A DNA stretch of 55,665 nucleotides, the filler included, from Candidatus Hydrogenedentota bacterium (lineage in GTDB: Bacteria; JBFMHD01), in NCBI GenBank assembly GCA_040752395.1. It is 3 parts of 3 records of this genome, joined end to end, with 100 filler letters (N's around TTAATTAATTAA, not from the genome) between each part and the next. Parts side by side here need not be neighbours in the genome. Positions count along the whole stretch, not along the records: positions 12,530 to 43,139 come from JBFMHD010000007.1; 2 more parts are not named here. One strand, given 5' to 3'. Positions 3,092 to 43,239 of this stretch are shown here, in pieces; position 1 is the stretch's first letter, and each line of letters begins with the position of its first letter. The position numbers and the translations under genes are program-made. The notes beneath the pieces are model-generated. The model was not told the origin of the DNA and ran no database searches. It worked only from the letters and a program-made list of their open reading frames with translations.

Positions 3092-3327
3092 AACAATTCT
3101 ACCTCTACACCTTTGGCTTCAGCGTGACGTACACCAACATGTGTTCCCCGTATTAAAAGATCAACCGGGTCCGCTAACGGTGCATTACGAATTACTGTTA
3201 TTTTTGTACCGGAAATAAATCCCATATCTGATAAACGTTGTCCGGTTACTCCGCCTAATTTTACATCAATAATTCTGCATTCCTGACCGGGTTTCACATC
3301 ATCTAATGTCATTTTTCTTCTCTCCAT
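3088..3327 (-). CDS. feoA: FeoA
   Basis: RLSDMGFISGTKITVIRNAPLADP FeoA signature; overlaps the feoB start. Confidence 0.95.
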   Translation of the reverse strand: MERRKMTLDDVKPGQECRIIDVKLGGVTGQRLSDMGFISGTKITVIRNAPLADPVDLLIRGTHVGVRHAEAKGVEVELL

Positions 3328-3364
3328 TTTATAACCAGCTTCTCAAAATAAGAAAGCTGAGTGG

Positions 3365-4093
3365 TCAGTATAGATGTTTAAACCATCCTCGACGATGTCG
3401 ATGACGATGCTGCCAGCGTTTTTCAACCAAAGGAATAACTTTAATATTCTTAGCTCTATCAAAATCTATACTGATACGGCCATCTTTAGCAGCTAACAAT
3501 ATAGGCCCATTAGCAATTTTGGTCACTACTTCAACGATCGAACCTACCCAAATTCCCATATCCGTTAAACGAGTTGAATATTCATCTTTGATATAACCTA
3601 TCTGTCCTGAGACATCTTTAGTATGCTCATCTAATTCTTTTATATGCGTAATCATTTCTCTATAACCCGGGCATTCTTTATTCACATTCAAGTCACCACA
3701 CATATGTTTTATATCATTATGCATATGAGCGATGTCTTTTATTATATGCTCAATATCCTCCCTCGCGTCTTTATCAGTATCAAGAGTCACAACCTGTGCT
3801 CTTGTATTTGGTGGAATCAAACTCAGTGGGACAGGGCTTGATGGATTCGGATTTGTATACAGTTGTTCGTTATTTGATGGCAACCCTGTAAAATGTATGG
3901 TCTCAAGGTGATCCGTATGCTCAAGCAGATTATGGATATGTCCATCCACATCATTTATGTGGACAATCATTTCCTGGTACCATTTACAATCCTTACACTC
4001 AGTAAGAAATTTTGTAATGTGTTCCACATCTTTGTGGATATGGTTGAGGATTTCCTTTAGATGTAATATATTCTCTCTTAAGCTAGCCATCAT
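3365..4093 (-). CDS. FeoA-domain protein with duplicated His-rich helical modules
   Basis: FeoA elements PLSLIPPNTRAQVVTL and RLTDMGIWVGSIVEVVTKIANGPILL, plus two homologous His-rich segments. Confidence 0.8.
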   Translation of the reverse strand: MMASLRENILHLKEILNHIHKDVEHITKFLTECKDCKWYQEMIVHINDVDGHIHNLLEHTDHLETIHFTGLPSNNEQLYTNPNPSSPVPLSLIPPNTRAQVVTLDTDKDAREDIEHIIKDIAHMHNDIKHMCGDLNVNKECPGYREMITHIKELDEHTKDVSGQIGYIKDEYSTRLTDMGIWVGSIVEVVTKIANGPILLAAKDGRISIDFDRAKNIKVIPLVEKRWQHRHRHRRGWFKHLY

Positions 4094-4170: not shown

Positions 4171-4596
4171 TTACCTACATTTAATACATAATCCCTTTAT
4201 ACTCAATCTGTGTTCTACTGGTTCGAAATCGTATTTCTTGCAAATTCCCATCTGCAACTTTTCTATCCTCTCCTCGCTGAATTCAATGATTCTACCACAT
4301 TTGGTACATATAAGATGGTCATGGTGAGTATGTCCATAAGTATACTCGTAGTAATTTTTATTAAAGCTTCCTAACGATCTCTGGATAACTTTTGTTTCCA
4401 CAAGAATAGGCATGGTGCGATATACTGTGGCACGTGAAATATTAAGTCCCTTTTTACATAACTTTTCATAAAGTTCATCAACATTAAAATGGTCACGAGT
4501 TGCGAATACTTCTTTGAGGACCAATTCTCTCGAAGGTGTAAATTTAAGATTGTTTCTCTTCAAATATTCTTTAAATTTTTCTAACAGCTCTTCCAT
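4171..4596 (-). CDS. fur: Ferric uptake regulator
   Basis: ISRATVYRT helix, HHDHLICTKCG and C-terminal CxxC; heads the feo operon. Confidence 0.95.
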   Translation of the reverse strand: MEELLEKFKEYLKRNNLKFTPSRELVLKEVFATRDHFNVDELYEKLCKKGLNISRATVYRTMPILVETKVIQRSLGSFNKNYYEYTYGHTHHDHLICTKCGRIIEFSEERIEKLQMGICKKYDFEPVEHRLSIKGLCIKCR

Positions 4597-4614
4597 ATAT
4601 CATCCCGCCTACAA

Positions 4615-4633
4615 AATGAGATTGTTTCTCATT
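4615..4633. promoter_or_regulatory. Fur box (autoregulatory)
   Basis: AATGAGA-TTGTT-TCTCATT has perfect 7-bp arms. On the minus strand it extends as GATAATGAGAAACAATCTCATT, close to the canonical Fur consensus. It lies between the -10 box and the fur start. Confidence 0.8.
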
Positions 4634-4642
4634 ATCATTCAT

Positions 4643-4670
4643 ATTATAATTATTTTTTCCCCTTTGTCAA
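4643..4670 (-). promoter_or_regulatory. Sigma70 promoter of the fur-feo operon
   Basis: Minus strand TTGACA-16 nt-TATAAT, both boxes consensus, with an A-tract upstream. Confidence 0.8.
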
Positions 4671-12429: not shown

Positions 12430-12529
12430 NNNNNNNNNNNNNNNNNNNNNNNNNNNNNNNNNNNNNNNNNNNNTTAATTAATTAANNNNNNNNNNNNNNN
12501 NNNNNNNNNNNNNNNNNNNNNNNNNNNNN
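12430..12529. other. Artificial contig linker
   Basis: N runs around TTAATTAATTAA, which gives stops in all six frames. Confidence 0.98.
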
Positions 12530-27088: not shown

Positions 27089-30000
27089 TTGAACTCTTTG
27101 TACGCGAGGCTTTTTGTGAGATTATTTAAAATTTTTCTTCCAATGCCTCTATACCTCTTTTGCGCCTTTGTGCCTTTGTATCTCTGTACCCACTTATACG
27201 CTAATAATAGCGTACATACCACATACCTCTGGCATATGGACCAGCCAATTTACTGGCCCGATAGACATTCCTCAGGTAATAGATACGAATATGCATGGGA
27301 CTCGATCCAGGCTAAAGATGGCGGTAGAACTAACCCATTAAATGACGTAAGAGCAATCTTTAGTTTAGATGACCGCGTAGCCGCATACCAATGGCGACCA
27401 AAGGATTCCATAGGCACTGTGCTCTGGCACCCTGATGCCGGAGCACAAATCAATTATTCTGCCTGCCTTATTGAGAACGTCCGCTCTCTCGGTGATGCCT
27501 ATCAACTCGGTTATTCTCCAACATGGTATTCCGGATACCGTGAAGGAAGGAACTGGTCAACCTCAGGTGGGAAACCAAGATTAGATATCGTTCTATTTAC
27601 ATTCCATCATATTTTACCAGGACTTTCTGACCCTATTGTTGTACAACGAGAGATCGAAATATATAAACAAATATATCCTGATGCCTGGGGTACTACACCT
27701 GGTTTATCTAAAGGATATTTCCCTTCTGAGATAGCGTTCTCTGAACGGCTTATCCCTGTTCTTGTTCAGCAAGGCATAGAATGGGTTGTTGTATCTAATT
27801 CACACATATCACGTTGTATCGAAAACTTCCCGCTTGTACTTGGTACTGGCGGCGAAAATACCGAACCACCAAACAGAGCTGATATCATTAACCCAGCACA
27901 AAATAACTGGTTTCGGATGCAGATTGACCGAGGCTGTTCACCCTGCAACGCTTACCCATATTCAATGAGACCACACTATGCAAAATACGTAGACCCAAAT
28001 ACAGGAACTGAATACAAAATCATTGTTGTTCCTACTGAGCAGGCTATGAGCTGGAAAGATGGTTATCAGACTTATGGTACTCAAGATATTGATGGTATAG
28101 CCTGGGCTAATGAGCCTGCAACACCGATGTTAATTGTGTTCTCGCATGATGGCGACAATGCGTATGGCGGCGGCTATTCATATTATATGGAAAGCGTCCC
28201 AAGTTTTGTTTCTCAAGCAAATTCTAAAGGATATTCGCCAACAACTATTCAGCAGTATCTCACAGACCATCCTGTTGACCCAGCTGATATAGTTCATGTA
28301 GAAGATGGTCCCTGGGTAAATGCTGACGGTGATATGGGCTCGCCTACTTACTGCAACTGGAACTGGCCATTAATGAGTCAAACAGGAACAGTTGATATCG
28401 CTAATGGTTGGGCCGAGGATGAACGTAACTGGGCTGTGTTTACCGCTGCTCTTAACCGCATTGTCACGGCTGAACAGGTCTTTGGAGCCCCACCTGACCC
28501 GCGTAAAATTATCTATCCCTGGGAAGGTGCTAATAATTTAGAACTTGCCTGGCATTTCTATTTAGGCGGCACAAACTCAGGGTTTATGTATTATGGTAAA
28601 GCGCTTGATATGGAGGTTAAACCTACTATATCATCGAACGAGGCTGTGTATCATGCTGATTTGATTCTCGGCTCAAATCCAAATGATTTAACACCACCAA
28701 CAATCTGGCTACCTCAGCGTTACCCGTATAATCCAGGCTCACTTAATTTCGGTGCTATCTATAACTATAAACAATACTATGCCCCACGTGATTTCTGGGT
28801 CTGGACTTTTATTTATGATCTCTCAGGCATACAATCTGTAACTCTGAAATATCGGATCGATAACGATGGTGTAAACCCATTATCGTCAAACCAGAACGAG
28901 GTCTATCAAGACGGTACAGAGGTTGGTACCTGGCGCTCACTACCTATGACTCAACGAGTATTCCCAAAAGATAATGTCTATAATGACCCTGAAATAGATT
29001 TCTTTGAATTACCAATCTATATCGCTGATGAATATTATGTTCATGTAGATAGAGCTGAATTAAACAGCGTTTTAATTGATTACTATGTTGAGGCTATTGA
29101 TAGCCGAGGGAACATCACAAGGTCACCAATCCAACATTGTTATATCGGTGACGGTTCTGGTTCTGGCGGTACACCACAAACTCTATGGACACCAACCTAC
29201 CCTACTGAAAACGACTTAATCACAATAACAAAAAATATAGCTACTACTGATACTGTTTATCTTCACTGGGGTGTTAACAGCTGGACTCTGCCTGCAGATT
29301 ACTACTGGCCTTCAGGCTCATTTCAATACGATGCTCAAAGTATTGAATCCCCGATGACTAAAACCGGCTCTGAAACTTACCAGATAACAATAGGTCCTTT
29401 TAATCAGGCTCAAGAAGTTAATCAAGTAAATTTTGTATTCCATTGGGGTTCAACCTGGGATAATAACAACGGCCAGAACTATAATATAACAGTTACTCAA
29501 GTCCCGATTGATACCCAGCCGCCAGATACACCAACAGGTTTAACTATAACAGAAAAAGATCAGACAATAGATTTAAGCTGGAACGCAAACACAGAGCCTG
29601 ATTTAGCTGGGTATTATATATATAGAAAAGCACCAGCAGATACAACATTAGTAAAACTAAATTCGACACCCTGGACTCAAACAACCTACTCAGATACGGG
29701 TCTCACAAATAATTCAGTCTATTATTATCGTATAAGTGCAGTTGATAATTATGATACACCAAATGAATCAGGTTTATGCGACACGGAATCCGGTATCCCG
29801 CGGTCTGTTGATACAGCTCCACCTCTTCCACCAACTGGTCTCTCAACCGCTAAACAGACTCTGGCTATAAAATTGTCCTGGAGTAGAAATCTTGAAACTG
29901 ATTTATCAGGTTATAAGGTCTATAGCTCAACTATTTCAGGTGGACCTTATACCCAGATCGCTGATACGTCTAATACTTACATAACACATACTGATCTTAA

Positions 30001-33000
30001 CCCTGCTGTTAGATATTACTATGTAGTTAAAGCCTATGATAGTTCAAATAATCTTTCAGATACCTCTTCTGAAGTTAGTGACACACCGTTGCCGGACCCG
30101 GCGCCATCAGCACCTACAGGTCTTACACCAACCCCATCATCAGAAAAAGTTACTTTAACATGGAACCCTAACTCTGAGCCTGATGTAGCCGGTTACAGAG
30201 TCTACTATTCAACACTTAGTTTCCCTTTAATTTTACAATATGATACCACACAAACAACAGTTGTTATTTACAATTTAGTAAATGATTCCACGTATCAGTT
30301 TGTTGTTTCTTGTTATGATACCTATGGTTCTGAAAGCACTAAATCAGGAACAGTTACAGCTACACCTAAAGATTATATAACTGTTCACTTCAGTCTGGAT
30401 TTAACAAGTATAACTACTGAAAACACGGTTACAATAGCTGGTAATAGATTGACGCCTGCGTGGTCACCTACTTCTAACCAGCTATCAGTTGTTGAGACAG
30501 GCTCATATTATAAGATAGATTTCCAGTTTTTATCAGGTGATACTTTAGAGTATAAGTATGTGATTAATGGTAATCAGTGGGAGAATGATTTTTCAGGAGG
30601 GTGGTCTATTAACAGAGATATAACTATTGTTGAGCATGAGCCTGGTATAATGTGGGTACATAACAAATGGAACATAGACGGTGATTTGTCTCCTGGCTCG
30701 CCAACAGGTCTGACCCCAACCGATCTCCCAAATTCTATCAAGCTCGAATGGTTAGAAAACAGCGAGTTTGACCGCCGGGGATATATTGTTTTAGTTGATA
30801 CTGATGGTAGTTTTGATTCGCTATCTATAGTCTCAGATAATTACATTACAATTTCAAATATGAATCCAGGCGATACAGCTTTATTTAAAGTTGTATGTGT
30901 TGACAGCGCGTTTAATGTGAGTGGCTATAGCTCGACTATTACAGGCACTGCAGGTGGTAATGCGCCACCATCAAGCCCAACTGGTTTGAACGTTCTCGGT
31001 GTCACGGATACCGCTGTTATTCTTGACTGGGCTGATAATACTGAAGCTGACTTATCTGGCTATTTTATCTATAAATCAACTACAAGCGGTTCAAATTATA
31101 CGAGGGTCAATACAGATACGCATAACCAATCATATTATACAGTCTCTAATCTTACAACGAATGAAACCTATTATTTTGTAGTCTTAGCAGTTGATTCTAC
31201 CGGATTATGGAGCGATACTTCTTCTGAGGTTCAAGGAACACCAAGACCACCAGATACCACACCTCCTTCTGCACCTGCAAACCTGAGAGGCACAGTCGGT
31301 GATAAATACGTTATACTTTACTGGACTAAATCGCCTGAGCAGGATGTTACAGGATACAACGTCTATAGAAAGAGACTTACAGAACAGAATTTTGTCCGCA
31401 TAAATACTTCTGTTGTTACAGATACAACTTACACCTCTTCCGGACTTACTAATAATGAGACATATCAGTTCTATGTTACAGCTCTTGATAATGCATATCC
31501 TAATAATGAATCAGATTCTTCAAACACAGTTTCATTAATGCCTTATGCACCCCCAACCTTTAGAACAATCACAATTGATGGTGATTTCCTTGATTGGATT
31601 CATAATGATGTTATTGAGCTTGATGGCTATAACGATGATTATAAATTATATGATAATTATGACCAGAGTAGAGATATAATAGCGATCTATGCAGCAGAGG
31701 GTCAGGACAATTATTATTTCAGGATCGATTTTTATGAACTCGGTATCTTTGCTGAAAGCACCTATATGGATGCTGTGTTTCTTCTTGATTTCGCAAGCGG
31801 TGGTCAATCCTCACTGCCTAATGTCACTGTTACAACTGATAAACCCTGGGAGATAGCCATTGTCTTTGATGACGTGAATACCTATAAAGTTTACACACCT
31901 GACTGGGTTGACCATCCAACTGATTTTCTTGGAGCACAAATAAGAAGCAATATCGATTGTTTAGAACTCGGCATAAAGAAATCCTTGATGAAAACCTATG
32001 GGTTTACAGATTTCCAGACTATAAATATTCAATGCTATACTTATAAAGATGCTGCTACCCAGATAACAGATGCTGTGGCTGATGACAATCCCTGGGCTGA
32101 TGGTATTTTAAACAGTGCGACTTTATCAACTGCACAAACAGGTACTGCAAAATATTCTGCTATCTTACACGCTAATCAATCCCTGAATCAAGGCAGTGAC
32201 ATCGCAGACTGGATTTATGACGATGTGAACTTAACGCCGAATGGTAACCCCACAGGTTATCGCCGTGCGTTACAAACAGCTTCGTTATATAAACAATCAG
32301 CTAATTTTCATATCAGCGGCTCACTTGCTGTTACTCTCGCCCATGCTAATAATTCAAATTCTTTAAAAGATGGCCCGACTTTTATAAATGATGTTAAAGA
32401 GTTTGTTGATACGGACCAGAGTTATAAACCTGGCCGATTAATCACTGGCGGCGTTTTTGCTGAACATATTATCCCGTTCTTTGAGAATAACTCAGGTCTC
32501 GGTATCTATGTTAATGCAAAAGCTACTTATTATAAAGATAGAATATTAAAATCAATATTTGACATAGGCTACCAGCCGCGGGTTTACTGGACCCCTGAAC
32601 GTGTTATCCGCGGTACAAGTTTTGATGACATTATTACTGATTCCGATGGTAGCCCTACTAATTATATCGCAACTGTTATTGACCAGGTGACACATCTCAG
32701 AGACTGGTATGGTATAACAGACCCGTATAAAGTTTATAAAATAAATGGTGTTATCTGTTTTGCGATCGATGATTATTCTGACCAGAAGAAGTTCTGGAAT
32801 ATGGATGATGGTTTGCATATCGGTGTAAGAGAGCTATTACTCAACAAAGCTATGGCTGCTGACCAGGAGCAGCTCGTGCTTGTGTTTGACGACTGGGAAG
32901 CGTATGCCGGTAAATCGTTTGCATCGCAAGAGACTAATGATAACCCGGATAACTGGGACAAGACAGTTCGCTGGCTCGCTACACACCCATGGATCCAACT

Positions 33001-36000
33001 CATTACGCTTGAAGATATACTTGACTGGGGTTGGAGCTACATCGATTTAGGCACCAATCTCGGTTTAGGGTTTGATACTTACGAATATCTTAAACATGCA
33101 ACCGAGAACTCTTATGAAAACTGGTATTATGGTGGATTCTATGAAGATGATTTTGCTGATGCAGTACCAGTTCTTCGTGGTACAAGATACTCAGGTCCTA
33201 CAACAATCCCATCTGCAAAAAAATACGGCGACGTTTATACAAGCAATACTATCTTCTATGAGACCTGGAATAATATTAAAAATGCAGCCCCGAATAAATT
33301 AAAAACTTTAGCTGAGCTCGGATTCATCGCTACTATATTTGAGACCGCATGGCACGATGAAGATAACGTGGATTATTCCAGAAACCCTGACGGCTCCTGG
33401 GTTTACCCTGATGTTACATGGGATCAAATCAGTCAATGGGCTTTAAAGCTTCATGGCAAAGTAAGAATGAATAACATTATCGCAGAGGCTGCAAACTGGG
33501 CTAATAATGTCAAAACAGGTGTCATCGATGCTACTGCTTGCGCATCTGCAACCGACGTTGATCTTGATGGCGAAAATGAATACATACTTTATAACAATCG
33601 CGTATATGCTGTATTTGAAAACGATGGTGGAAGATTAGAATTTGCGTTTGCTTATAATTCGAATGATGGCGGTTATGGTATGGTTGGTGTTGGTGGCTCG
33701 AACTCTGACTACGAAGGCGAAGAAGAAGGCTCAAGTAATTACAGAAGATGTTCTGCGTTCAAAGATATGAATAACGGCATCTATGTCGATGATGTTTACT
33801 CTGTTTCTGTCAGCACAAAATCACTCACTTTTACGTCTTCTGATGGAAAGATCATCAAAACTTTTTCGCTCGCTGACGGTGATAAAACTATCAATGCTTC
33901 TTATACTGAAACTCTTACTGGCCCTCTGTACATCAGGTTCGGACTATCTCCAAATCAAGTTGATATGTATTACAATGGCACAGATAATATCGCTAAATCA
34001 GGTGGTGCTACTTCTGGCTATGTTGCTGTGACTAATTCTGCTGGCGGCACGGCACGCATAAATTTTGGTAGCACAAGTCTAAACACGGGTTTTAGTGATG
34101 GCTCTCCTGATAACTCAAACCCCTGTATGACTTATCAATACGAGATTTATGGTGATGGCTCTTTTACTTTGAGCTTGACTCTTGATGGTGGCGAAGATGC
34201 TGCTACACCACCACCTGAACCACCAACTAATCTTTCTGCTACACCTGACTCAGGCTCTATTCTACTAACCTGGACAACCTCTGTCGGACCAAATCTCTCA
34301 GGCTACTTCATATATAAAAGCACAGATGGCTCAACATATTACAAAAGATATTCTGACACTATCCCCGGGTCATTAACCCAATGGGCTGATACAGGACTTA
34401 CTAATGGTAACACATACTGGTATTATCTCACAGCTGTAAATACTTCAGGGACCGAAGGATTAGCATCGAGTATTGTCTCAGGTACACCGACTGCTAATGG
34501 ACCCCCTACCCCAACATCGGGCCTCTCTGCAACACCCGGAAACCAAACCGTGCTCCTTAAATGGAATAAAAATACTGAATCAGATTTAGCAGGTTATAAT
34601 GTCTATCGTGGTCTTGTTTCTGGTGGACCTTATACAAAGATTAATGGCTCTCTTAATTCTGATACTGATTATCTTGATACCACTGTGAGTAATGGCGTGA
34701 CTTATTATTATGTAGTAACTGCTGTTGATACAGCAGATAATCAATCTGCATACTCGTCCGAGACAAGTGCAACACCAAATGTTTTAGCTTCACAAGATAA
34801 CGATGTCTGGTGGAGCCATCTCAAGCATGACCCTGAAGATTCTGTGCCGATAAATAATAAAAACTATCGCTCGCCATACCAGCCCTGGCAATATGAAACA
34901 CCGAGTATCTATGTTCGTTCTGCTTCTGGTGATTTAACAGGTGTCTCATTACGTGTCTGGGACGTATTTCAGTCTAAAGTCATCTCTCCCTGGCCTACTG
35001 GCACTTTTATCGGCTCATCTGGTGAATATGATTACTATGAATGTCAGATACCTGCGTTAAGCGGTCAAAAATGGTACAGAATAGCTGTGATTGATGGCAC
35101 TGATACTGACTGGATTAAGTCTGACGGCGCAGGTAACTATGTCGTTTCAGATGGTGGTGAAGATAATGACCCGGCAGGCGCTATTGATTTTACTTATACA
35201 CCAACACCAACAGCTTCACAAGATAACGATGTCTGGTGGGATTTCCTCGGCCATAACCCTGATACAATCGTTGAATCAGAAACATATTATTACCGTGAAC
35301 CAATAAACCCAACACAAAATGATACTATTACAATTTATATAAGAGCTGCTTCTTCTGATTTAACAGGGATCAGTTTGCGAGTCCTTGATTTTGGTGACTC
35401 CTCTGTTAACTGGTACTCTGCTCAGGTTTATGATACTATCGGCAATTATCAAGTTTGGGTTGTTAATATACCACCTGATAGCGATACGCGTGAATATCGT
35501 ATAGCTGTTGTTGATGGGACTGATACTGACTGGTTAGGACTTAGTGCTGGCTGGGTTACACAGGAATGCAAACAATACACCGCATGGGCTGTAAATGGGA
35601 CCGATGCTGATGCTGATTCAGGTGCAGAATGGTCGTTTAAACCATTATCGTCTGCATCACAGGATAATAAAATCGAGACCGATTACCTCTATTTTGACCC
35701 TGATAGCATCGCTTATTCCGGAACAACTTACCAATCACCGCTTAATCCCTCTTTATATGATACTATATTTTTTACAATAAGAACAAGACGAGATGATCTC
35801 AGTTATGTAGTTATAAAATTATTTATATCTGATACAACTACTGAAACAACACCGATTACTGCTTCTAAAATATTTAGTACAGATATCTATGATTTTTATC
35901 AGGCAATACTCAATCCACAAACTGATACTATCTACTACCGCATTATAGTTGTTGATGGCTCTGATACAAAGTATCTAAAAGATAATGCTACTGGTAGTTT

Positions 36001-39000
36001 TGCTATCTCTTCAACAGGTAATGATAACGATCCTGAAGGCGCACTCGATTTCATTATAAGACCATTGCTTGATACCACACCACCAGCTATACCACAAAAT
36101 TTAGGTGTAAGTAACCCGGGCTCGGGTTATTCACTTGATATCAACTGGACACCTGATACTGATGCTGATCTATCATACTATAAAATATATCGTTCCACAC
36201 TCCCAACAGCTACATACTCATTTATAAAATCCTGCACCACGAATTTTTATACTGATACACCTCTACTGCCAGGCATTACATACTACTATCGTGTCAGCGC
36301 AGTGGATCTTAAAGGTAATGAATCAGAACAATCTGACTCTGCCTCTAATACACCAAATGATACCTTGCCACCTGCTTGTGTCAGACTCGCTTCACCACAA
36401 AATGGCGCTTCTACAAATGATACAACACCGCTTCTTGTCTGGACAACCACCTATGACTACGGCTCATGTATAAAATATTATAGAATACAGCTTGATAATG
36501 ATACCTATTTCTTATCAATAATAATTAATGATACAACCACAGCCTCGGATACTGATTATCAAATAACTACTGGACTGGGTGAAGGTAGCTATTACTGGCG
36601 TGTCTTTGCTGTGGATTTGTTTGATAATACCTCTTCCATTATTGATACATTTAATTTTATAATCGATACAACCGCGCCCGGGCCCGTGACTTTAATTAAG
36701 CCCAAATATTACACAAATGATACACCAACTTTATTCACTTTATCAGGCGATGTTAATAGGTATCATATACTGATCAGCCTTAGATTTGATTTTTTAACAA
36801 CCGTATATGATACAATAATAACAGGCACAAGCGTATATCTTTCGCTTGCAGAAAATTTATACTACTTCAAATCTGCAGGGGTTGATTCTACTGATTTAGA
36901 AGGCAGTTTCAGCCAGCCTGAAACCTTTATACTCGATATAACAAAACCGCAAATAACCTCGATCTCAATCAATACCGATACTTATCTTTATAAATCAAGC
37001 GATACCATCTATTTTAATAACTCCTCGAACCTTTATTGCACCTTAACAATATCGTTTGTTGAAGACTATCCTGATTCTGCTGTTTCTTCCTCTTCTTATG
37101 GGAATACACCGGTTGATTCAATGCCTGACAATGGTTTTGATTTATTATACTATATCTCTCAGGCAGAAACAGCAAGCTCGACTGTATCAATTAAAGTCTA
37201 TGACAAATCAAGTAATTCTGATTCTAAAATTATTTTCTTTGTTCGCGATATAACGCCACCAGCTTTCTCTATATCCCCTGTCTCAGATACTGATAATAAT
37301 AATGACAATTATCAGCCATCATATCTATGGGAAGATGATACAATTATTATTATCAGTATTTCAGCATCAGATACTATCTCTGGCCTGGCTCAAAACTATA
37401 TAAGAGCAAGTTTAAAGCCCGGCGATACCACGGATTGGACATCCTCTAATCAACTGGTTCTTGCCTCATCGTATGCTGATACACAGATACTTATAACAGT
37501 TTATACAAAAGATGCTGTGTCAAATTCTTCAGCTAATACTATCACTATAAATATCGATAGAACGTTACCTGTTATAAGTTCCTGCACCTTTCTTGATCCT
37601 GGTTATGAAACCTCTTATTATAATCCAATCGATTCTCCAATAGTATATCTTTATGTTACTTATACAGATACATATCCTGATACTATAATCTTAGATATTA
37701 CTGGCATCACCGATCCTCAGGCTGATTCATTGCCGGTTAATGCAAGCACTTTTGCGATTAATGTCTCAGCATCACCAAGTGCTGATACTTATAATATCAC
37801 AATCTATGCGATCGACTATGCGGGCAACGTCGGTCTTTATACGCCTCCTGCTTTAAAACTTGATCGGACATCACCTGTTGTCGGTACCTTAAAAATCAAT
37901 AACGGCACGTTAAATGTAGCTGATACCACGTTTAAATTAACCGCTGTTAGCTGGTCTGATGCACATTCCTGCATAAAAGAATATTATGCATCTTGTACCA
38001 CACCTAACCCGTATTTACTTAACCCTGATTCTGATGGCATCTGGCCTGAATTTGTTATCCCCGATGTTAGTGGTACGCATACCATCTATGTTATGTGTAT
38101 AGATAATTTAAGAAACACAAGCTCTATTGTCTCTATAACTATCAATTATGATTCAAAAACACCGGTTATAGAACAAATTAACGTTACCTCAGATAAAGAT
38201 ACCTATTTATTTTCTAATAATCCGCTTTTAAGCGAGGAAGATACTGTCTGGTTCTCTAATCTACCCTCGTTTGGCGCTAATCAGACCATTACAATAAATG
38301 TCACTTTCCGTGCTAATAATCCTGATACTATGACTGCTGATACCGCATTTAATAAAGGACTACAAATAGATACCACCATAGCTGATTCTTATACCGCAAC
38401 CTATACCATAGACCAATCTGTTACATCAAACACCCGAGTCATTATTACTGTTTATGAAGCAACTGGTGAAAAGGATAGCGGGATTATAAATTTTGCTCGC
38501 GATATCGATACCCCAGGTATGATAAAAAATGATACCTACTACGGACCTTATAACTCTGCGCCTGCATCTATAATTGATCTGGATTTCTATGACACTGGTG
38601 TCGGCCTTGAATATTTTGGCTATGGCGTCGGCTCACCTGCTATTCTACAAAAGTATTATATCTCTGGTAACTCTTATACAACCAACTGGCAGATTAACTG
38701 GAATGATATCTCTGAAGGTACAAACGTTATTTATGTTACTCTATCTGATAGCGTTGGTAATATTTCATCAGGCTATGATACTTTTATTATCATTAAAGAC
38801 ACTACAAAACCTGATTCACCTCTTATTACAAAACCAGCTGATAACTCATGTGATTCTTCTGTAAATATACTCTTTACATGGACATCTGTTAGTGAAGCAA
38901 ATACCTATACTCTAATTGTTGATAATAACTCTACTTTACTATCACCTGAATATACAAAAATTACAACAGACACTAATAAAACCTTAAGTTTATCCGAGGG

Positions 39001-41347
39001 TATCTGGTATGCTGGTGTTGCTGCTACTGACCTTGCAGGTAATATCAGTGATACTTCAAGTATTATAACTTTTTGTAGGGATGCAACCGTTCCTTCGTTT
39101 GTAAGCAAATATCCTGATAATAATTACGTCCTATCTGATTCCTCGGTTTATATAACAATCTCCTGTACAGACTCATTATCTCTACCTGATTCTTTCTACT
39201 TTACCTTGCTTATTGACACAGGCGCAGGTTACACTGATGTCGGTTCCCAGATGACGAAATACGATACCGGGTTTAGATATAGACCTGCTAAAGGATACTT
39301 TGATTCAGGAACTATTATTTATGTAGGATATATTTACGATCGTGCTCATAATGTTAATGTTTGTACCGTCTCATTTCGGATTGATACAGCATCTGTCCCG
39401 ATCTCTATTATCTCACCTGTTGATACTTATATAAAATATGTTTATTTAGATGTCACTATTTTTTCAGAGATCAGCGATACTATATATCTGTTTTTAGATA
39501 ACAATCTATACTCATATAAATTATTAACTACTCAAACATATACTTTTTATGCGGTCCCTCTAATCACTCAGGGCTGGCATACGTTAAAAGCCTGTGCTGT
39601 AAATAATTTAGGCGTATGGTCTGATACAATCACAAAATTGGTCTATCTTGACACCACTCCACCCCCTGCGCCGGTTCTTATAAGTGTTACACCTGATACC
39701 TGGACAGGAATCGACTCATTCACTATAAAATGGATAGCTGTTAATGACTCCTCTGGTATTTTATATTATTACTATATCCTAGACAATCTGCTTCTTGATA
39801 CTTCAGGTGGTATAAAAACAACTGATACCCAGATACAGATACAAATCGGGTTTTCGCAAGGTATCCATAAACTTTATCTCTATTCTCAGGACAAAGCAGG
39901 GAATATCGATACTTCACAATATACCATTGTCACTCTTTACCTTAATTCAAATGCTCCATCACTTTATATCACTTCACCTGTAAATAATGGTTATATCCAG
40001 AATTTAACTGTCACAGGAACTATAACAGACCCTGAAGATACGCCTGTAATTGTATATGTCCTGGTTGATGGGGCTGATACCACGCAGGCATCTGTAAGCT
40101 CACAGGGCACCTGGGCTGTAACAGTAATAATAACCTCTGCTGGCTGGCATACTATCAAAGCTTATGCAGTAGATAATTCGAATAATACCGCTTCTTATGA
40201 AGTAGTAGCTTTTTACGATACCTCTACTCCATCAATCGCAATTACACCTTTCGCAGTTATTGATACTAAAACATCAGTAGTTGTAACAGGCTCCTTGATT
40301 GATTCTGATATTATAGCAATAACATTAAAACAGAACAATGATACCACCTATAATGCTTCGGTTAATACTCAAGCAAAAACTTTTAGTGCAACTCTTACTC
40401 TTACAGATGGTGAAAACATATTCTATATTGACAGCTCAGACAGCAGTGGTAACCATTCCTATGATACAATCTATATATACAAAGTAGATAATGCATTGAC
40501 TTATGATACTGTAAAAGGATATTCGATTATCCCATCGTTCACACAATTCGATACATATTCTGCAGGCGTTAATATCCAAGGAACCACTACTATTGAGGTT
40601 CAAATCCCGATTTATGATTTTACTATGGGTCAATATCTGGACACTTACATAATAAAATGTTGTTTTGCTGATACTACCACAGCCTTCCTCACTCACAGAG
40701 CTGATACTACAAGCTTATTATCTGCATTAAATACTGATGATTATAGATTATTATCATTTACTCTTTATGAATTTAAGGTGCTTAATCGAGAAGGGGCAGA
40801 CATAGGTAACGATTCTTCAAAACTACTCTCTGCAACACTTATCTATAAAACATCTCGTTCACAGATCGCTGGTAAAGATGTAACGACTCTTAAAGTATTT
40901 TATTACAACCCTTTAACAGCGACTTTTGAATCTGTTAGCTCGTCGTACAGTTCTCTTGAAGGCGGTATAGTTACTTCTTTATCGCATCTTTCAATATTTG
41001 GTATTTTTCCGGGTGCAACCGCGGCACAGCCGTCGTTATCAAATCTAATAATTTATCCAAACCCGTTTAAACCTAATGACGGCGATGCTAATACGGGTCG
41101 ATGGTATGTTGCTGGCGATTTTACGACTGGTATCATATTCGATAGATTAACTGATGATGTAACGATAAAAATATTTACGATTACAGGTCAAAAAGTAATC
41201 GAACGCAGAATTACAAATACAGGCATCGCCCATTGGGACGTCCGTAACGACCAGGGCGATATCGTTGCATCAGGTGTTTATATAGCAGTTGTCGAAGATA
41301 ACAAAGGTCGTGGCAGAGTTATTAAGAAGATTGCAATAATAAAGTAG
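27089..41347 (+). CDS. Giant secreted multidomain alpha-glucan-active enzyme (two GH57/GH119-like domains, CBMs, FN3/Ig arrays, T9SS-like CTD)
   Basis: Domain 1 has WHMDQP, FPSEIAF and SHDGDN. Domain 2 has LHANQ, WTPERV and VFDDWE. Also WDNNNGQNY (CBM25-like), LEYKYVING (CBM20-like), three SQDNDVWW-type modules (CBM34-like), many FN3 repeats and a YPNPF...WD...ASGVY...KKIAIIK C-terminus. Start codon uncertain. Confidence 0.85.
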   Translation: MNSLYARLFVRLFKIFLPMPLYLFCAFVPLYLCTHLYANNSVHTTYLWHMDQPIYWPDRHSSGNRYEYAWDSIQAKDGGRTNPLNDVRAIFSLDDRVAAYQWRPKDSIGTVLWHPDAGAQINYSACLIENVRSLGDAYQLGYSPTWYSGYREGRNWSTSGGKPRLDIVLFTFHHILPGLSDPIVVQREIEIYKQIYPDAWGTTPGLSKGYFPSEIAFSERLIPVLVQQGIEWVVVSNSHISRCIENFPLVLGTGGENTEPPNRADIINPAQNNWFRMQIDRGCSPCNAYPYSMRPHYAKYVDPNTGTEYKIIVVPTEQAMSWKDGYQTYGTQDIDGIAWANEPATPMLIVFSHDGDNAYGGGYSYYMESVPSFVSQANSKGYSPTTIQQYLTDHPVDPADIVHVEDGPWVNADGDMGSPTYCNWNWPLMSQTGTVDIANGWAEDERNWAVFTAALNRIVTAEQVFGAPPDPRKIIYPWEGANNLELAWHFYLGGTNSGFMYYGKALDMEVKPTISSNEAVYHADLILGSNPNDLTPPTIWLPQRYPYNPGSLNFGAIYNYKQYYAPRDFWVWTFIYDLSGIQSVTLKYRIDNDGVNPLSSNQNEVYQDGTEVGTWRSLPMTQRVFPKDNVYNDPEIDFFELPIYIADEYYVHVDRAELNSVLIDYYVEAIDSRGNITRSPIQHCYIGDGSGSGGTPQTLWTPTYPTENDLITITKNIATTDTVYLHWGVNSWTLPADYYWPSGSFQYDAQSIESPMTKTGSETYQITIGPFNQAQEVNQVNFVFHWGSTWDNNNGQNYNITVTQVPIDTQPPDTPTGLTITEKDQTIDLSWNANTEPDLAGYYIYRKAPADTTLVKLNSTPWTQTTYSDTGLTNNSVYYYRISAVDNYDTPNESGLCDTESGIPRSVDTAPPLPPTGLSTAKQTLAIKLSWSRNLETDLSGYKVYSSTISGGPYTQIADTSNTYITHTDLNPAVRYYYVVKAYDSSNNLSDTSSEVSDTPLPDPAPSAPTGLTPTPSSEKVTLTWNPNSEPDVAGYRVYYSTLSFPLILQYDTTQTTVVIYNLVNDSTYQFVVSCYDTYGSESTKSGTVTATPKDYITVHFSLDLTSITTENTVTIAGNRLTPAWSPTSNQLSVVETGSYYKIDFQFLSGDTLEYKYVINGNQWENDFSGGWSINRDITIVEHEPGIMWVHNKWNIDGDLSPGSPTGLTPTDLPNSIKLEWLENSEFDRRGYIVLVDTDGSFDSLSIVSDNYITISNMNPGDTALFKVVCVDSAFNVSGYSSTITGTAGGNAPPSSPTGLNVLGVTDTAVILDWADNTEADLSGYFIYKSTTSGSNYTRVNTDTHNQSYYTVSNLTTNETYYFVVLAVDSTGLWSDTSSEVQGTPRPPDTTPPSAPANLRGTVGDKYVILYWTKSPEQDVTGYNVYRKRLTEQNFVRINTSVVTDTTYTSSGLTNNETYQFYVTALDNAYPNNESDSSNTVSLMPYAPPTFRTITIDGDFLDWIHNDVIELDGYNDDYKLYDNYDQSRDIIAIYAAEGQDNYYFRIDFYELGIFAESTYMDAVFLLDFASGGQSSLPNVTVTTDKPWEIAIVFDDVNTYKVYTPDWVDHPTDFLGAQIRSNIDCLELGIKKSLMKTYGFTDFQTINIQCYTYKDAATQITDAVADDNPWADGILNSATLSTAQTGTAKYSAILHANQSLNQGSDIADWIYDDVNLTPNGNPTGYRRALQTASLYKQSANFHISGSLAVTLAHANNSNSLKDGPTFINDVKEFVDTDQSYKPGRLITGGVFAEHIIPFFENNSGLGIYVNAKATYYKDRILKSIFDIGYQPRVYWTPERVIRGTSFDDIITDSDGSPTNYIATVIDQVTHLRDWYGITDPYKVYKINGVICFAIDDYSDQKKFWNMDDGLHIGVRELLLNKAMAADQEQLVLVFDDWEAYAGKSFASQETNDNPDNWDKTVRWLATHPWIQLITLEDILDWGWSYIDLGTNLGLGFDTYEYLKHATENSYENWYYGGFYEDDFADAVPVLRGTRYSGPTTIPSAKKYGDVYTSNTIFYETWNNIKNAAPNKLKTLAELGFIATIFETAWHDEDNVDYSRNPDGSWVYPDVTWDQISQWALKLHGKVRMNNIIAEAANWANNVKTGVIDATACASATDVDLDGENEYILYNNRVYAVFENDGGRLEFAFAYNSNDGGYGMVGVGGSNSDYEGEEEGSSNYRRCSAFKDMNNGIYVDDVYSVSVSTKSLTFTSSDGKIIKTFSLADGDKTINASYTETLTGPLYIRFGLSPNQVDMYYNGTDNIAKSGGATSGYVAVTNSAGGTARINFGSTSLNTGFSDGSPDNSNPCMTYQYEIYGDGSFTLSLTLDGGEDAATPPPEPPTNLSATPDSGSILLTWTTSVGPNLSGYFIYKSTDGSTYYKRYSDTIPGSLTQWADTGLTNGNTYWYYLTAVNTSGTEGLASSIVSGTPTANGPPTPTSGLSATPGNQTVLLKWNKNTESDLAGYNVYRGLVSGGPYTKINGSLNSDTDYLDTTVSNGVTYYYVVTAVDTADNQSAYSSETSATPNVLASQDNDVWWSHLKHDPEDSVPINNKNYRSPYQPWQYETPSIYVRSASGDLTGVSLRVWDVFQSKVISPWPTGTFIGSSGEYDYYECQIPALSGQKWYRIAVIDGTDTDWIKSDGAGNYVVSDGGEDNDPAGAIDFTYTPTPTASQDNDVWWDFLGHNPDTIVESETYYYREPINPTQNDTITIYIRAASSDLTGISLRVLDFGDSSVNWYSAQVYDTIGNYQVWVVNIPPDSDTREYRIAVVDGTDTDWLGLSAGWVTQECKQYTAWAVNGTDADADSGAEWSFKPLSSASQDNKIETDYLYFDPDSIAYSGTTYQSPLNPSLYDTIFFTIRTRRDDLSYVVIKLFISDTTTETTPITASKIFSTDIYDFYQAILNPQTDTIYYRIIVVDGSDTKYLKDNATGSFAISSTGNDNDPEGALDFIIRPLLDTTPPAIPQNLGVSNPGSGYSLDINWTPDTDADLSYYKIYRSTLPTATYSFIKSCTTNFYTDTPLLPGITYYYRVSAVDLKGNESEQSDSASNTPNDTLPPACVRLASPQNGASTNDTTPLLVWTTTYDYGSCIKYYRIQLDNDTYFLSIIINDTTTASDTDYQITTGLGEGSYYWRVFAVDLFDNTSSIIDTFNFIIDTTAPGPVTLIKPKYYTNDTPTLFTLSGDVNRYHILISLRFDFLTTVYDTIITGTSVYLSLAENLYYFKSAGVDSTDLEGSFSQPETFILDITKPQITSISINTDTYLYKSSDTIYFNNSSNLYCTLTISFVEDYPDSAVSSSSYGNTPVDSMPDNGFDLLYYISQAETASSTVSIKVYDKSSNSDSKIIFFVRDITPPAFSISPVSDTDNNNDNYQPSYLWEDDTIIIISISASDTISGLAQNYIRASLKPGDTTDWTSSNQLVLASSYADTQILITVYTKDAVSNSSANTITINIDRTLPVISSCTFLDPGYETSYYNPIDSPIVYLYVTYTDTYPDTIILDITGITDPQADSLPVNASTFAINVSASPSADTYNITIYAIDYAGNVGLYTPPALKLDRTSPVVGTLKINNGTLNVADTTFKLTAVSWSDAHSCIKEYYASCTTPNPYLLNPDSDGIWPEFVIPDVSGTHTIYVMCIDNLRNTSSIVSITINYDSKTPVIEQINVTSDKDTYLFSNNPLLSEEDTVWFSNLPSFGANQTITINVTFRANNPDTMTADTAFNKGLQIDTTIADSYTATYTIDQSVTSNTRVIITVYEATGEKDSGIINFARDIDTPGMIKNDTYYGPYNSAPASIIDLDFYDTGVGLEYFGYGVGSPAILQKYYISGNSYTTNWQINWNDISEGTNVIYVTLSDSVGNISSGYDTFIIIKDTTKPDSPLITKPADNSCDSSVNILFTWTSVSEANTYTLIVDNNSTLLSPEYTKITTDTNKTLSLSEGIWYAGVAATDLAGNISDTSSIITFCRDATVPSFVSKYPDNNYVLSDSSVYITISCTDSLSLPDSFYFTLLIDTGAGYTDVGSQMTKYDTGFRYRPAKGYFDSGTIIYVGYIYDRAHNVNVCTVSFRIDTASVPISIISPVDTYIKYVYLDVTIFSEISDTIYLFLDNNLYSYKLLTTQTYTFYAVPLITQGWHTLKACAVNNLGVWSDTITKLVYLDTTPPPAPVLISVTPDTWTGIDSFTIKWIAVNDSSGILYYYYILDNLLLDTSGGIKTTDTQIQIQIGFSQGIHKLYLYSQDKAGNIDTSQYTIVTLYLNSNAPSLYITSPVNNGYIQNLTVTGTITDPEDTPVIVYVLVDGADTTQASVSSQGTWAVTVIITSAGWHTIKAYAVDNSNNTASYEVVAFYDTSTPSIAITPFAVIDTKTSVVVTGSLIDSDIIAITLKQNNDTTYNASVNTQAKTFSATLTLTDGENIFYIDSSDSSGNHSYDTIYIYKVDNALTYDTVKGYSIIPSFTQFDTYSAGVNIQGTTTIEVQIPIYDFTMGQYLDTYIIKCCFADTTTAFLTHRADTTSLLSALNTDDYRLLSFTLYEFKVLNREGADIGNDSSKLLSATLIYKTSRSQIAGKDVTTLKVFYYNPLTATFESVSSSYSSLEGGIVTSLSHLSIFGIFPGATAAQPSLSNLIIYPNPFKPNDGDANTGRWYVAGDFTTGIIFDRLTDDVTIKIFTITGQKVIERRITNTGIAHWDVRNDQGDIVASGVYIAVVEDNKGRGRVIKKIAIIK

Positions 41348-41511: not shown

Positions 41512-42903
41512 ATGAAAATTAATTTATCAATTCCCAATTTTTTGTTCTTCCGTTTCCTTTCCTGCCGTAGCCTGAAGCCCGTAGCCTGTAGCCTGTTCTT
41601 ATCTTTCTCTCTCCACGCTGCGAACAGCATCGGCCAAACCTGTGCCGAGTTCCTTAAAATCGAGGTCGGAGCTAAACCCGCTGCTATGGCCGGGGCTTAT
41701 ACCGCTTCAGGTAATGATGCCTGGGCACCTTTCTATAACCCAGCACACCTCGGCTTCTTAACAAACTATGAGATTGGGTTCCAGCATAATAACTGGTTCC
41801 AGAATATTAATCAAAACTATTTTGTAGCAATATTACCTACAAAACGCTTCGGAACATTTGGTGGTAGTTTTAATTATGTTGATTTAGGAGATTTAGAACG
41901 AACAACCATAGCCTCAGGTCAGGCAGGCCAGATACTCGGCACATTTGATGCCTCGGATATGGCTCTCTCTTTATCCTGGGGTATGAAATTTGAGAAACCG
42001 ATAAGTGTGGGCACTACTTTGAAGTGGATCCATTCAAAGATAGAATCCGAAAAAGCAGATGCAGTTGCATTTGATGTAGGTCTGAGATACAGACCATATA
42101 AAATCTGGGATCTCGGACTGACTGTCCAGAACATTGGTTCTGATATGAAATTTATCTCAGAGGGTGACCCACTGCCATGGTCTTTCCGACTTGGTAACTC
42201 TTTAAGATTTTTTGATGATAGCCTAAGTTTAAGTCTTGATATGATCAAATATCGAGCCACAGACCCTGATGTATCAGTCGGACTTGAATATGATTTACTA
42301 AAAGTAGTGGGGTTCCGCGTTGGTTATAACTCACGAAATAGCGATGTGGACCAGGGTTTAACCTGTGGTATAGGTTTTCATTATGCTGGCTTTAGTGTGG
42401 ATTACAGTTATGTTCCGTATGGTTTTCTTGGCAACAGTCACCGGCTTAGTGTGGGGTTCAGGTGGGGTGTGACTCCAAAACCACAACCTCTAACCACTAA
42501 ACCCCATCCCCCAACCGCCAAACCAAAACCTCCTACACAAAAACGCTATGACACAATAACACAAAAACCAGAAATGGTTCCACTCGAAGTATTCTACGTT
42601 CCGCGTTTTAATGGTATTAATCTACCGCAAAATGCGGTCTGGCTCGAGAGATCTGCCCAGGATTTATTAAAATCAAGATTAGGGAACAAAGGAATAAAAC
42701 TTTCAGAGACTCGCTACTCTCACTACATCCAATGCACAATCGAGTTTACTGACATCTCAACTCTGCTTATCATTGCCAAACTTTATGACAAATATGACAA
42801 TCTCATCTACACAACCAGCACCCGGGGCCCATCCTCAAAACTCATCCACCTCATCGATACTTTAAGTCTCTCTATCTTTAATCACCTAACCCAACCTCAA
42901 TAA
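41512..42903 (+). CDS. PorV/PorQ-family (UPF0164-like) outer-membrane beta-barrel with C-terminal extension
   Basis: AEFLKIEVGAKPAAMAGAY, FYNPA and DYSYVPYGFLGNSHRLSVG motifs, then a Pro/Lys linker and an extra domain. Confidence 0.88.
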   Translation: MKINLSIPNFLFFRFLSCRSLKPVACSLFLSFSLHAANSIGQTCAEFLKIEVGAKPAAMAGAYTASGNDAWAPFYNPAHLGFLTNYEIGFQHNNWFQNINQNYFVAILPTKRFGTFGGSFNYVDLGDLERTTIASGQAGQILGTFDASDMALSLSWGMKFEKPISVGTTLKWIHSKIESEKADAVAFDVGLRYRPYKIWDLGLTVQNIGSDMKFISEGDPLPWSFRLGNSLRFFDDSLSLSLDMIKYRATDPDVSVGLEYDLLKVVGFRVGYNSRNSDVDQGLTCGIGFHYAGFSVDYSYVPYGFLGNSHRLSVGFRWGVTPKPQPLTTKPHPPTAKPKPPTQKRYDTITQKPEMVPLEVFYVPRFNGINLPQNAVWLERSAQDLLKSRLGNKGIKLSETRYSHYIQCTIEFTDISTLLIIAKLYDKYDNLIYTTSTRGPSSKLIHLIDTLSLSIFNHLTQPQ

Positions 42904-43139: not shown

Positions 43140-43239
43140 NNNNNNNNNNNNNNNNNNNNNNNNNNNNNNNNNNNNNNNNNNNNTTAATTAATTAANNNNN
43201 NNNNNNNNNNNNNNNNNNNNNNNNNNNNNNNNNNNNNNN
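43140..43239. other. Artificial contig linker
   Basis: N runs around TTAATTAATTAA. Confidence 0.98.

Follow-up and report, generated by a model that had tools for sequence, protein, structure and literature searches.

The ZU5, GPS and Nup98 domains have been united as one superfamily (Zhang et al., 2012; PMC3482391). In these domains, as established for GAIN and FIIND domains, a histidine at P2 activates the serine or threonine at P1′ within a strained turn, so that the latter attacks the preceding carbonyl, while the strand that follows stays in the sandwich (PMC3210808; PMC10607210; PMC13123842). For bacteria, Zhang et al. report ZU5 domains in large surface proteins that also contain glycohydrolase domains or other enzymatic ones, and consider that autoprocessing may be general there (PMC3482391). 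RsgI is described as autoproteolytic in the abstract of one paper. Here we describe a related module from Candidatus Hydrogenedentota bacterium (JBFMHD01; GenBank assembly GCA_040752395.1). Within the window, i.e. the whole stretch of 55,665 nucleotides of DNA that was analysed, positions 27089..41347 of the plus strand hold a giant open reading frame (ORF) of 4752 amino acids (start codon predicted), which ends in a C-terminal sorting domain (CTD) of the type IX secretion system (T9SS). Judged by predicted structure, the ~160 residues before this CTD most likely form a β-sandwich of the ZU5/GPS (GAIN subdomain B) superfamily, and are best described in this way rather than as a GAIN domain. 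The best explanation of the arrangement as a whole, to which we assign a probability of roughly 0.5, is that of a self-cleaving ZU5/GPS-like module fused to the CTD.

The predicted cleavage site is encoded by the codons cat-ctt-tca at 40985..40993 (plus strand), which correspond to His4633-Leu4634-Ser4635 (P2-P1|P1′) and are located, according to sequence and model, where the GPS H-L|T/S site would lie, in the tight turn that connects the penultimate and last strands of the module (40550..41023, plus strand; residues ~4488-4645, equivalent to model residues 25-182). The site is followed on the same strand by the last β-strand, S-IFGIF (40991..41008; strand 173-178 by DSSP of both models), a short Pro/Ala-rich linker, PGATAAQ, assigned from sequence and model (41009..41029), and the type-A CTD (41030..41344), which starts ~17 residues after the H-L-S site, opens with IIYPNPFKPN... 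and was identified by structure matches and by TIGR04183 (24.7 bits in the protein scan, where the cut-off is 23, and 28.7 bits in the genome search). An earlier note on this DNA had placed an HLS motif at these positions, within the string LKVFYYNP...GGIVTSLSHLSIFGIF and ahead of a secretion CTD; the codons, the plus-strand ORF, in which the string is present, and the TIGR04183 match all bear this out.

As a bare tripeptide the motif is at chance level, with H[LF][ST] seen twice in the 4752-residue protein against 1.0 expected from its composition, and the signal comes instead from homology, that is, from conserved columns. Alignment A5 comprises 78 rows (the giant protein, 66 loci from other genomes, P0004 and 10 paralogues), with 13 module-less loci and one near-duplicate locus excluded. 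Its most conserved module positions are a Trp column ~20 residues upstream of the motif (Trp in 76/78) and the three H-x-S columns, with His in 66 of 78 rows at P2, Phe (56) or Leu (18) in 74 of 78 at P1, and Ser (53) or Thr (20) in 73 of 78 at P1′, at a mean column identity of ~17% among the module sequences. H[FL][ST] was also found in 19 of the 20 best modules from 20 further genomes, the remaining one reading RFS, a figure that is somewhat biased because these are the best matches to a profile that includes the His. That HLS is a chance tripeptide in an ordinary Ig-like domain would agree with its count in the giant protein, but is refuted by the column conservation over 78 sequences and by the recurrence of the motif in 19/20 sampled genomes, and is also at odds with its fixed place in the fold; we attach next to no weight to it.

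The fold was assessed with two predictions. Model 1, a prediction on 11 paralogues, is mediocre (predicted local distance difference test score, pLDDT, 61.6); model 2, an AlphaFold prediction of module and CTD from the 78-row alignment, is confident (pLDDT 87.9, predicted template modelling score, pTM, 0.73). In model 2 the module is a β-sandwich in which strands 163-167 and 173-178 are joined by a turn containing L-S-H-L-S, and its helices are limited to two short ones inside the sandwich (77-83 and 87-91). When model 2 was compared with 48,161 chains by VIA-align, 12 of the 50 best matches fell on the module (residues ~5-180), namely seven GAIN domains, two ZU5 domains, one FIIND and two axonemal proteins. 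The best of them is the GAIN domain of CD97 [8ikj_R, Z 9.4, root-mean-square deviation (rmsd) 3.5, 141 residues aligned], and the other GAIN matches among the best 50 are CD97 again (9mqr_A, Z 9.3), CELSR1 (8.3), BAI3 (7.6), GPR97 (7.5), Gpr126 (7.3) and GPR110 (7.3). Ankyrin ZU5 (3f59_A) aligns over 122 of 149 residues with Z 8.1 and rmsd 3.2, the ZU5 domain of AnkB (6m3q_E) scores Z 7.4, and the FIIND of CARD8 (7jkq_B) Z 7.6. With model 1 the same families fill 14 of the top 17 rows, and the ZU5 domain of NLRP1 (6x6c_E) is matched with Z 6.1. Nup98 and SEA domains were absent from the best 50 rows listed by VIA-align for either model. Chains of axonemal doublet microtubules (9fqr_Hn, 8glv_AE and 9y6s_9f) rank amid the GAIN and ZU5 matches, with Z 7.4-8.2.

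The register of the alignments is informative as well. The matches to 7qu8_A (GPR97), 8hc0_A (GPR110) and 6v55_A (Gpr126) all stop at model residue 171, at residues 249, 566 and 827 of the respective chains; these are the chain ends, which we take to be the P1 residues. Likewise, the alignment of model 1 with GPR56 (5kvm_A) stops at residue 382 of that chain, opposite model residue 171, the Leu of HLS, and the cleavage site of GPR56 is given as H381-L382/T383 (PMC13123842). The case for the fold is thus made by the consistent filling of the list with GAIN, ZU5 and FIIND domains together with the matching register, and not by any single score. The earlier note had proposed a GAIN/GPS or ZU5-like domain and had staked this on the fold and on the conservation of H-x-S in homologues; both came out in its favour, with GAIN, ZU5 and FIIND domains as the best predicted-structure matches and with His and Ser/Thr retained at the frequencies given above, whereas a GAIN domain in the strict sense is not what was found, as subdomain A, the disulfides and a Pfam match above threshold are all missing.

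At the level of sequence the links to known families are all below threshold, yet they point in the same direction, toward GPS and ZU5. Scans of 77 individual modules with Pfam gave sub-threshold matches to GPS, the family matched most often, in four (best E 0.0034) and to ZU5 in two (best E 0.014), a ZU5 match was obtained for one of 11 paralogues (E 0.026), and the nearest named cluster of the ESM Atlas is ZU5 (score 0.85), which serves as a lead only. The module-only profile A6, '...W...tvtatvnHFSiFavfgaa', aligns weakly (E 0.44, 13.5 bits) with the GPS motif of BAI2, '...W...CQCQHLSTFAVLAQP', such that W...HFSiFav lies opposite W...QHLSTFAV, with Trp on Trp and HFS on HLS. Kelch repeats, which gave the best E in the profile searches of PDB sequences, were rejected as spurious repeat matches to a 'Y-D-x-x-T-N-E-W' stretch. 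Several observations speak against the assignment to this superfamily: no Pfam or NCBIfam family reaches threshold for the module of the giant protein, no PDB sequence was matched significantly in the profile searches, Foldseek returned nothing at E <= 1e-3 for model 1, and for model 2 its results are dominated by matches to the CTD and by long multidomain matches, with the NLRP1 FIIND at rank 48. Moreover, VIA-align Z scores below ~8 may reflect a common arrangement, and values of 7-9 are only modestly above those of unrelated β-sandwiches.

The module recurs in many genomes. A phmmer search against 1.84 billion representatives retrieved four proteins, all of which keep H[LF]S. In one of them, P0005 of the representative library (302 amino acids), the HLS module leads into a stalk rich in Ser, Pro and Glu, and the protein ends in a transmembrane helix that has a basic tail; there is no CTD, and judging from this sequence the module also serves beside another type of anchor than the CTD. 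Word-indexed searches gave no match for region 4464-4650 among shorter proteins, and a profile search of longer proteins matched solely a 1043-residue protein of this same genome. By contrast, a CTD-based pattern search led to 80 loci in ~38 genome records, which by record names belong to Candidatus Lindowbacteria (the closest, at 41% identity), Elusimicrobia, Hydrogenedentes, Dependentiae, Desantisbacteria, Omnitrophota and others. The module precedes the CTD in 67 of these 80 loci, a proportion biased upward by the ranking of the loci by tblastn to a query that contains the module, and the His is kept in 60 of the 67. Seven small ORFs of ~190-235 amino acids from Elusimicrobia-titled and untitled records (loci L087, L089, L097, L098, L099, L102 and L103) make up a small CTD-protein family of their own: they have a hydrophobic N-terminus and share 'GTLGQ..SG.AQS.NY.NSGGF' directly before the same type of CTD, and contain no ZU5-like module.

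Since a search of the genome's own phylum covered this genome alone, sampling was moved to the phylum of one of the loci (L036), from which 101 genomes were searched with profile A6. The profile matches 51 of them, in as many as 38 copies per genome. Behind the best module from each of 20 sampled genomes there is in every case a CTD-like tail that ends in a stop codon within ~90-130 residues of the motif. Peptidase_C25 (PF01364), the family of the PorU catalytic domain, was detected in two of the 101 genomes (E 1.4e-57 and 1.2e-31), which demonstrates that the search is able to detect the family, and is absent from 49 of the 51 module-bearing genomes. Module and CTD thus form a fixed cassette in many genomes of candidate phyla, almost all of them without C25.

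In the genome under study, hmmsearch found 11 modules in 10 ORFs, of which 10 end 98-111 residues from the end of the ORF, directly before a CTD, and one is internal. The latter belongs to a minus-strand ORF of 2395 amino acids on another contig (C328; loci L005/L007/L020) that contains two modules, one before the CTD (HLT) and the internal one at residues 1741-1830 (HFS), 565 residues from the end; if both were cut, this protein would fall into three pieces. Among the 11 aligned pre-CTD modules, P2 is His in six, Gln in two, Glu in two and Gly in one, and P1′ is Ser or Thr in nine. Of the 20 listed CTD-bearing ORFs of the genome, 11 have the module and nine lack it.

The identity of the CTD is supported by both structure and sequence. 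In the VIA-align comparison, the CTD (model residues 185-289) matches those of PorZ (Z 12.7, rmsd 2.0, 29% identity), PorU (Z 10.3) and mirolase (Z 8.9), as well as the CTD of NucA bound to the translocon (Z 9.0, 32% identity). Next to the giant ORF, at 41512..42903 of the plus strand, lies a gene for a PorV/PorQ-family outer-membrane protein with a C-terminal extension of ~145 residues (NF033709, 208.8 bits against a cut-off of 90; PF19572 PorV). This protein of 463 residues is matched as a barrel up to ~317, and has a Pro/Lys/Thr-rich linker at ~320-365 and then ~100 residues without a family match. An SprA-like ORF of 1917 amino acids is present in the genome, with 91 and 67.6 bits below the family cut-off of 200. 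GldK and GldM gave no match in the genome, a weakly supported negative, given that the control genomes yielded three GldK matches below the cut-off, none above it, and none to GldM.

A catalytic PorU was not found. The PorU model NF033707 matches in this genome solely via its own CTD part (model positions >= 949), and Peptidase_C25 gave no match in the assembly, which is 93.84% complete in 349 contigs. In five other module-bearing genomes NF033707 likewise matched only through its CTD part, and a C25 or PorU catalytic match was not found. The absence of porU that the earlier note had foreseen therefore holds as far as a genome of this completeness shows. These data also bear on the idea that the CTD is cut in trans, within the linker, by an undetected or non-PorU-type peptidase, with the module uninvolved. 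In its favor, porU or another peptidase gene could sit in a gap of the assembly, the module-less CTD proteins of this genome need some other handling, and a C25 peptidase does exist in two genomes of the sampled phylum. Such a peptidase is nevertheless missing from this genome, from the five others and from nearly all module-bearing genomes of the phylum sample, and cutting in trans would leave the conservation of H-x-S unexplained, so that we regard this as improbable.

A further possibility is that the module is a non-cleaving ZU5-like domain, one that serves as a spacer or stalk or that lengthens the sorting signal recognised by PorV/SprA, and in which H-x-S shapes the turn or binds, as in the ZU5 domains of ankyrin and UNC5. 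The module adjoins the CTD directly, as an extended signal would, the ZU5 domain of ankyrin, which does not cleave, ranks with the best matches in structure (Z 8.1), and modules devoid of the P2 His persist in intact ORFs (12/78), which indicates that the domain has a His-independent role. On the other hand, the three most conserved positions apart from the Trp are precisely the P2 His, the hydrophobic P1 and the P1′ Ser/Thr of known autoproteolytic motifs, and retention of His in 85% and of Ser/Thr in 94% of sequences with a mean column identity of only ~17% would be rare for a purely structural turn. In addition, the module stands before a transmembrane anchor in P0005 and once internally in another ORF, and is thus not tied to CTD recognition. 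We consider a non-cleaving role possible, at something under one chance in three.

The preferred reading remains that the giant protein cleaves itself between Leu4634 and Ser4635, for which the conserved triad and the fold argue, and we put the odds of this at about even. They are no higher because the giant protein is one of two sequences in the alignment with Phe at the Trp column (Phe4613, 40925..40927, plus strand, placed by the alignment), and because a consensus GPS motif is no guarantee of cleavage in animal GAIN domains. Further points count against self-cleavage as the general function of the module with the CTD: P2 is not His in 12 of the 78 aligned modules and, in this genome, in five of the 11 modules that precede a CTD (Q, Q, E, E, G), and copies without the His would be unable to cleave by this chemistry; nine of the 20 CTD-bearing ORFs here, and 13 of the 80 related CTD loci, have no module; porU might be hidden by the incomplete assembly; and a C25 peptidase co-occurs with the module in two of 51 module-bearing genomes.

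The anatomy of the site agrees with the chemistry known from ZU5, GPS and Nup98 domains. If the giant protein does cleave itself, the reaction would most likely proceed as follows. After folding of the module, the hydroxyl of Ser4635, activated by His4633, would attack the carbonyl of Leu4634 in an N-to-O acyl shift, and the resulting ester would then be hydrolysed. This would give an enzyme body of 4634 residues and a fragment of 118 residues composed of the SIFGIF strand, the linker and the CTD, and the two would be held together non-covalently by the SIFGIF strand inserted in the sandwich. The CTD could then carry the pre-cut protein via the SprA-like/PorV-like export route, and outside the cell the body would either be held at the surface via the CTD or be shed when the strand is pulled out. 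Such a scheme would dispense with a PorU-type sortase.

Whether the module stands in for PorU, as the earlier note had also proposed, is a more doubtful matter. That no PorU or C25 was found agrees with the proposal, and it is weakened by the absence of the module from nearly half of the CTD proteins of this genome and of the His from almost half of its modules, as well as by the module-less loci in other genomes; with nine of 20 CTD-bearing ORFs lacking it, the module is no general means of CTD removal. We therefore hold this part of the proposal only tentatively, at about one chance in four, and the interpretation of the earlier note is, overall, partly supported. With similar reserve, the findings can be extended to the rather speculative view that module and CTD constitute a self-cleaving release-or-tether cassette that does the work of PorU in PorU-less T9SS-like systems of many candidate phyla (by record names Lindowbacteria, Elusimicrobia, Hydrogenedentes, Dependentiae and others, and the lineage of this genome), and that the family represents the prokaryotic stock of the eukaryotic GAIN/GPS and ZU5 autoproteolytic domains.

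Cargo release without PorU is a gap in the biology of the T9SS beyond Bacteroidota, and cleavage by the module, if it occurs, would account for how cargo is freed or held in the many lineages in which CTDs of the T9SS type occur without PorU. It would also extend the ZU5/GPS autoproteolytic superfamily by a large family from bacteria, and provide a compact GPS-like domain without disulfides or a helical subdomain, which might lend itself to the study of strand release and of how GAIN-type cleavage works chemically and mechanically.

As to the remainder of the giant protein, it has a hydrophobic N-terminus, seven fn3 stretches and many Ig-like domains, and the domain immediately upstream of the module is Ig-like (matches to Big_13 and Glucodextran_B). 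Its N-terminal two thirds (positions 27089-36000) contain a GH57 match below the cut-off (E 6.4e-4) and weak matches to Ig-like N-terminal domains of α-amylases, and three tandem repeats of ~180 residues that start with ASQDN can be discerned by eye at residues ~2870-3400. The ORF lies on a single contig of 30.6 kb, which occupies positions 12530-43139 of the window and is set apart from the other parts of the window, which joins at least three pieces, by runs of N at 12430-12529 and 43140-43239; the whole assembly amounts to 2.84 Mb.

That a surface glycosidase of bacteria may carry a ZU5 autopeptidase has already been proposed in print (PMC3482391). The literature that was searched, which did not extend to the supplementary list of that paper, contained no report that connects such a module with a T9SS CTD or with a lack of PorU. 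Three points seem to be new: the fixed cassette of module and CTD, the coupling to the CTD being apparently undescribed; the size and spread of the family, for which every Pfam model stayed below its cut-off in the 77 sequences scanned; and the occurrence of the module in genomes without a PorU-type peptidase.

Compared with the GAIN/GPS domains of adhesion GPCRs and polycystin-1 (PF01825), the module has the same subdomain-B-type β-sandwich (Z up to 9.4), an H-L-S/T turn ahead of the last strand, a hydrophobic strand after it (S-IFGIF here, T/S-xFAVLM in GPS) and, in its family, a Trp ~20 residues upstream of the site. Cleaved GAIN fragments align with it up to the Leu, and like GAIN/GPS it sits directly before a membrane- or envelope-anchoring element. 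It differs in lacking the helical subdomain A, which in GAIN consists of about six helices and lies N-terminal to subdomain B, and the disulfides: the GPS motif has two conserved disulfides formed by four Cys, whereas the only two Cys of the module are adjacent (4524-4525) and distant from the motif. PF01825 does not match the module of the giant protein, and does so only below threshold in four of 77 relatives; moreover, the module comes from bacteria and has a T9SS CTD after it where GAIN proteins have a seven-transmembrane domain. With ZU5 and ZU5-UPA/FIIND (PIDD, UNC5CL, NLRP1 and CARD8) it shares a β-sandwich of equal size and a motif of the H-F-S type at the C-terminal edge, HFS being found in most of its relatives. 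PF00791 does not match the module of the giant protein (two of 77 relatives match, with E of at least 0.014), and a T9SS CTD takes the place of the UPA domain. Unlike in the polymorphic toxins described in PMC3482391, in which ZU5 is N-terminal, the sampled modules nearly always stand directly before a T9SS CTD. The canonical T9SS of Bacteroidota, finally, is resembled in the CTD fold with its TIGR04183 match, in the PorV/PorQ gene adjoining the cargo gene and in the SprA-like ORF, albeit below its cut-off. The locus departs from that system in that a PorU/C25 catalytic domain was not found in the 93.84%-complete genome, and in that the CTD is preceded by a ZU5/GPS-like domain with a conserved, predicted self-cleavage motif.

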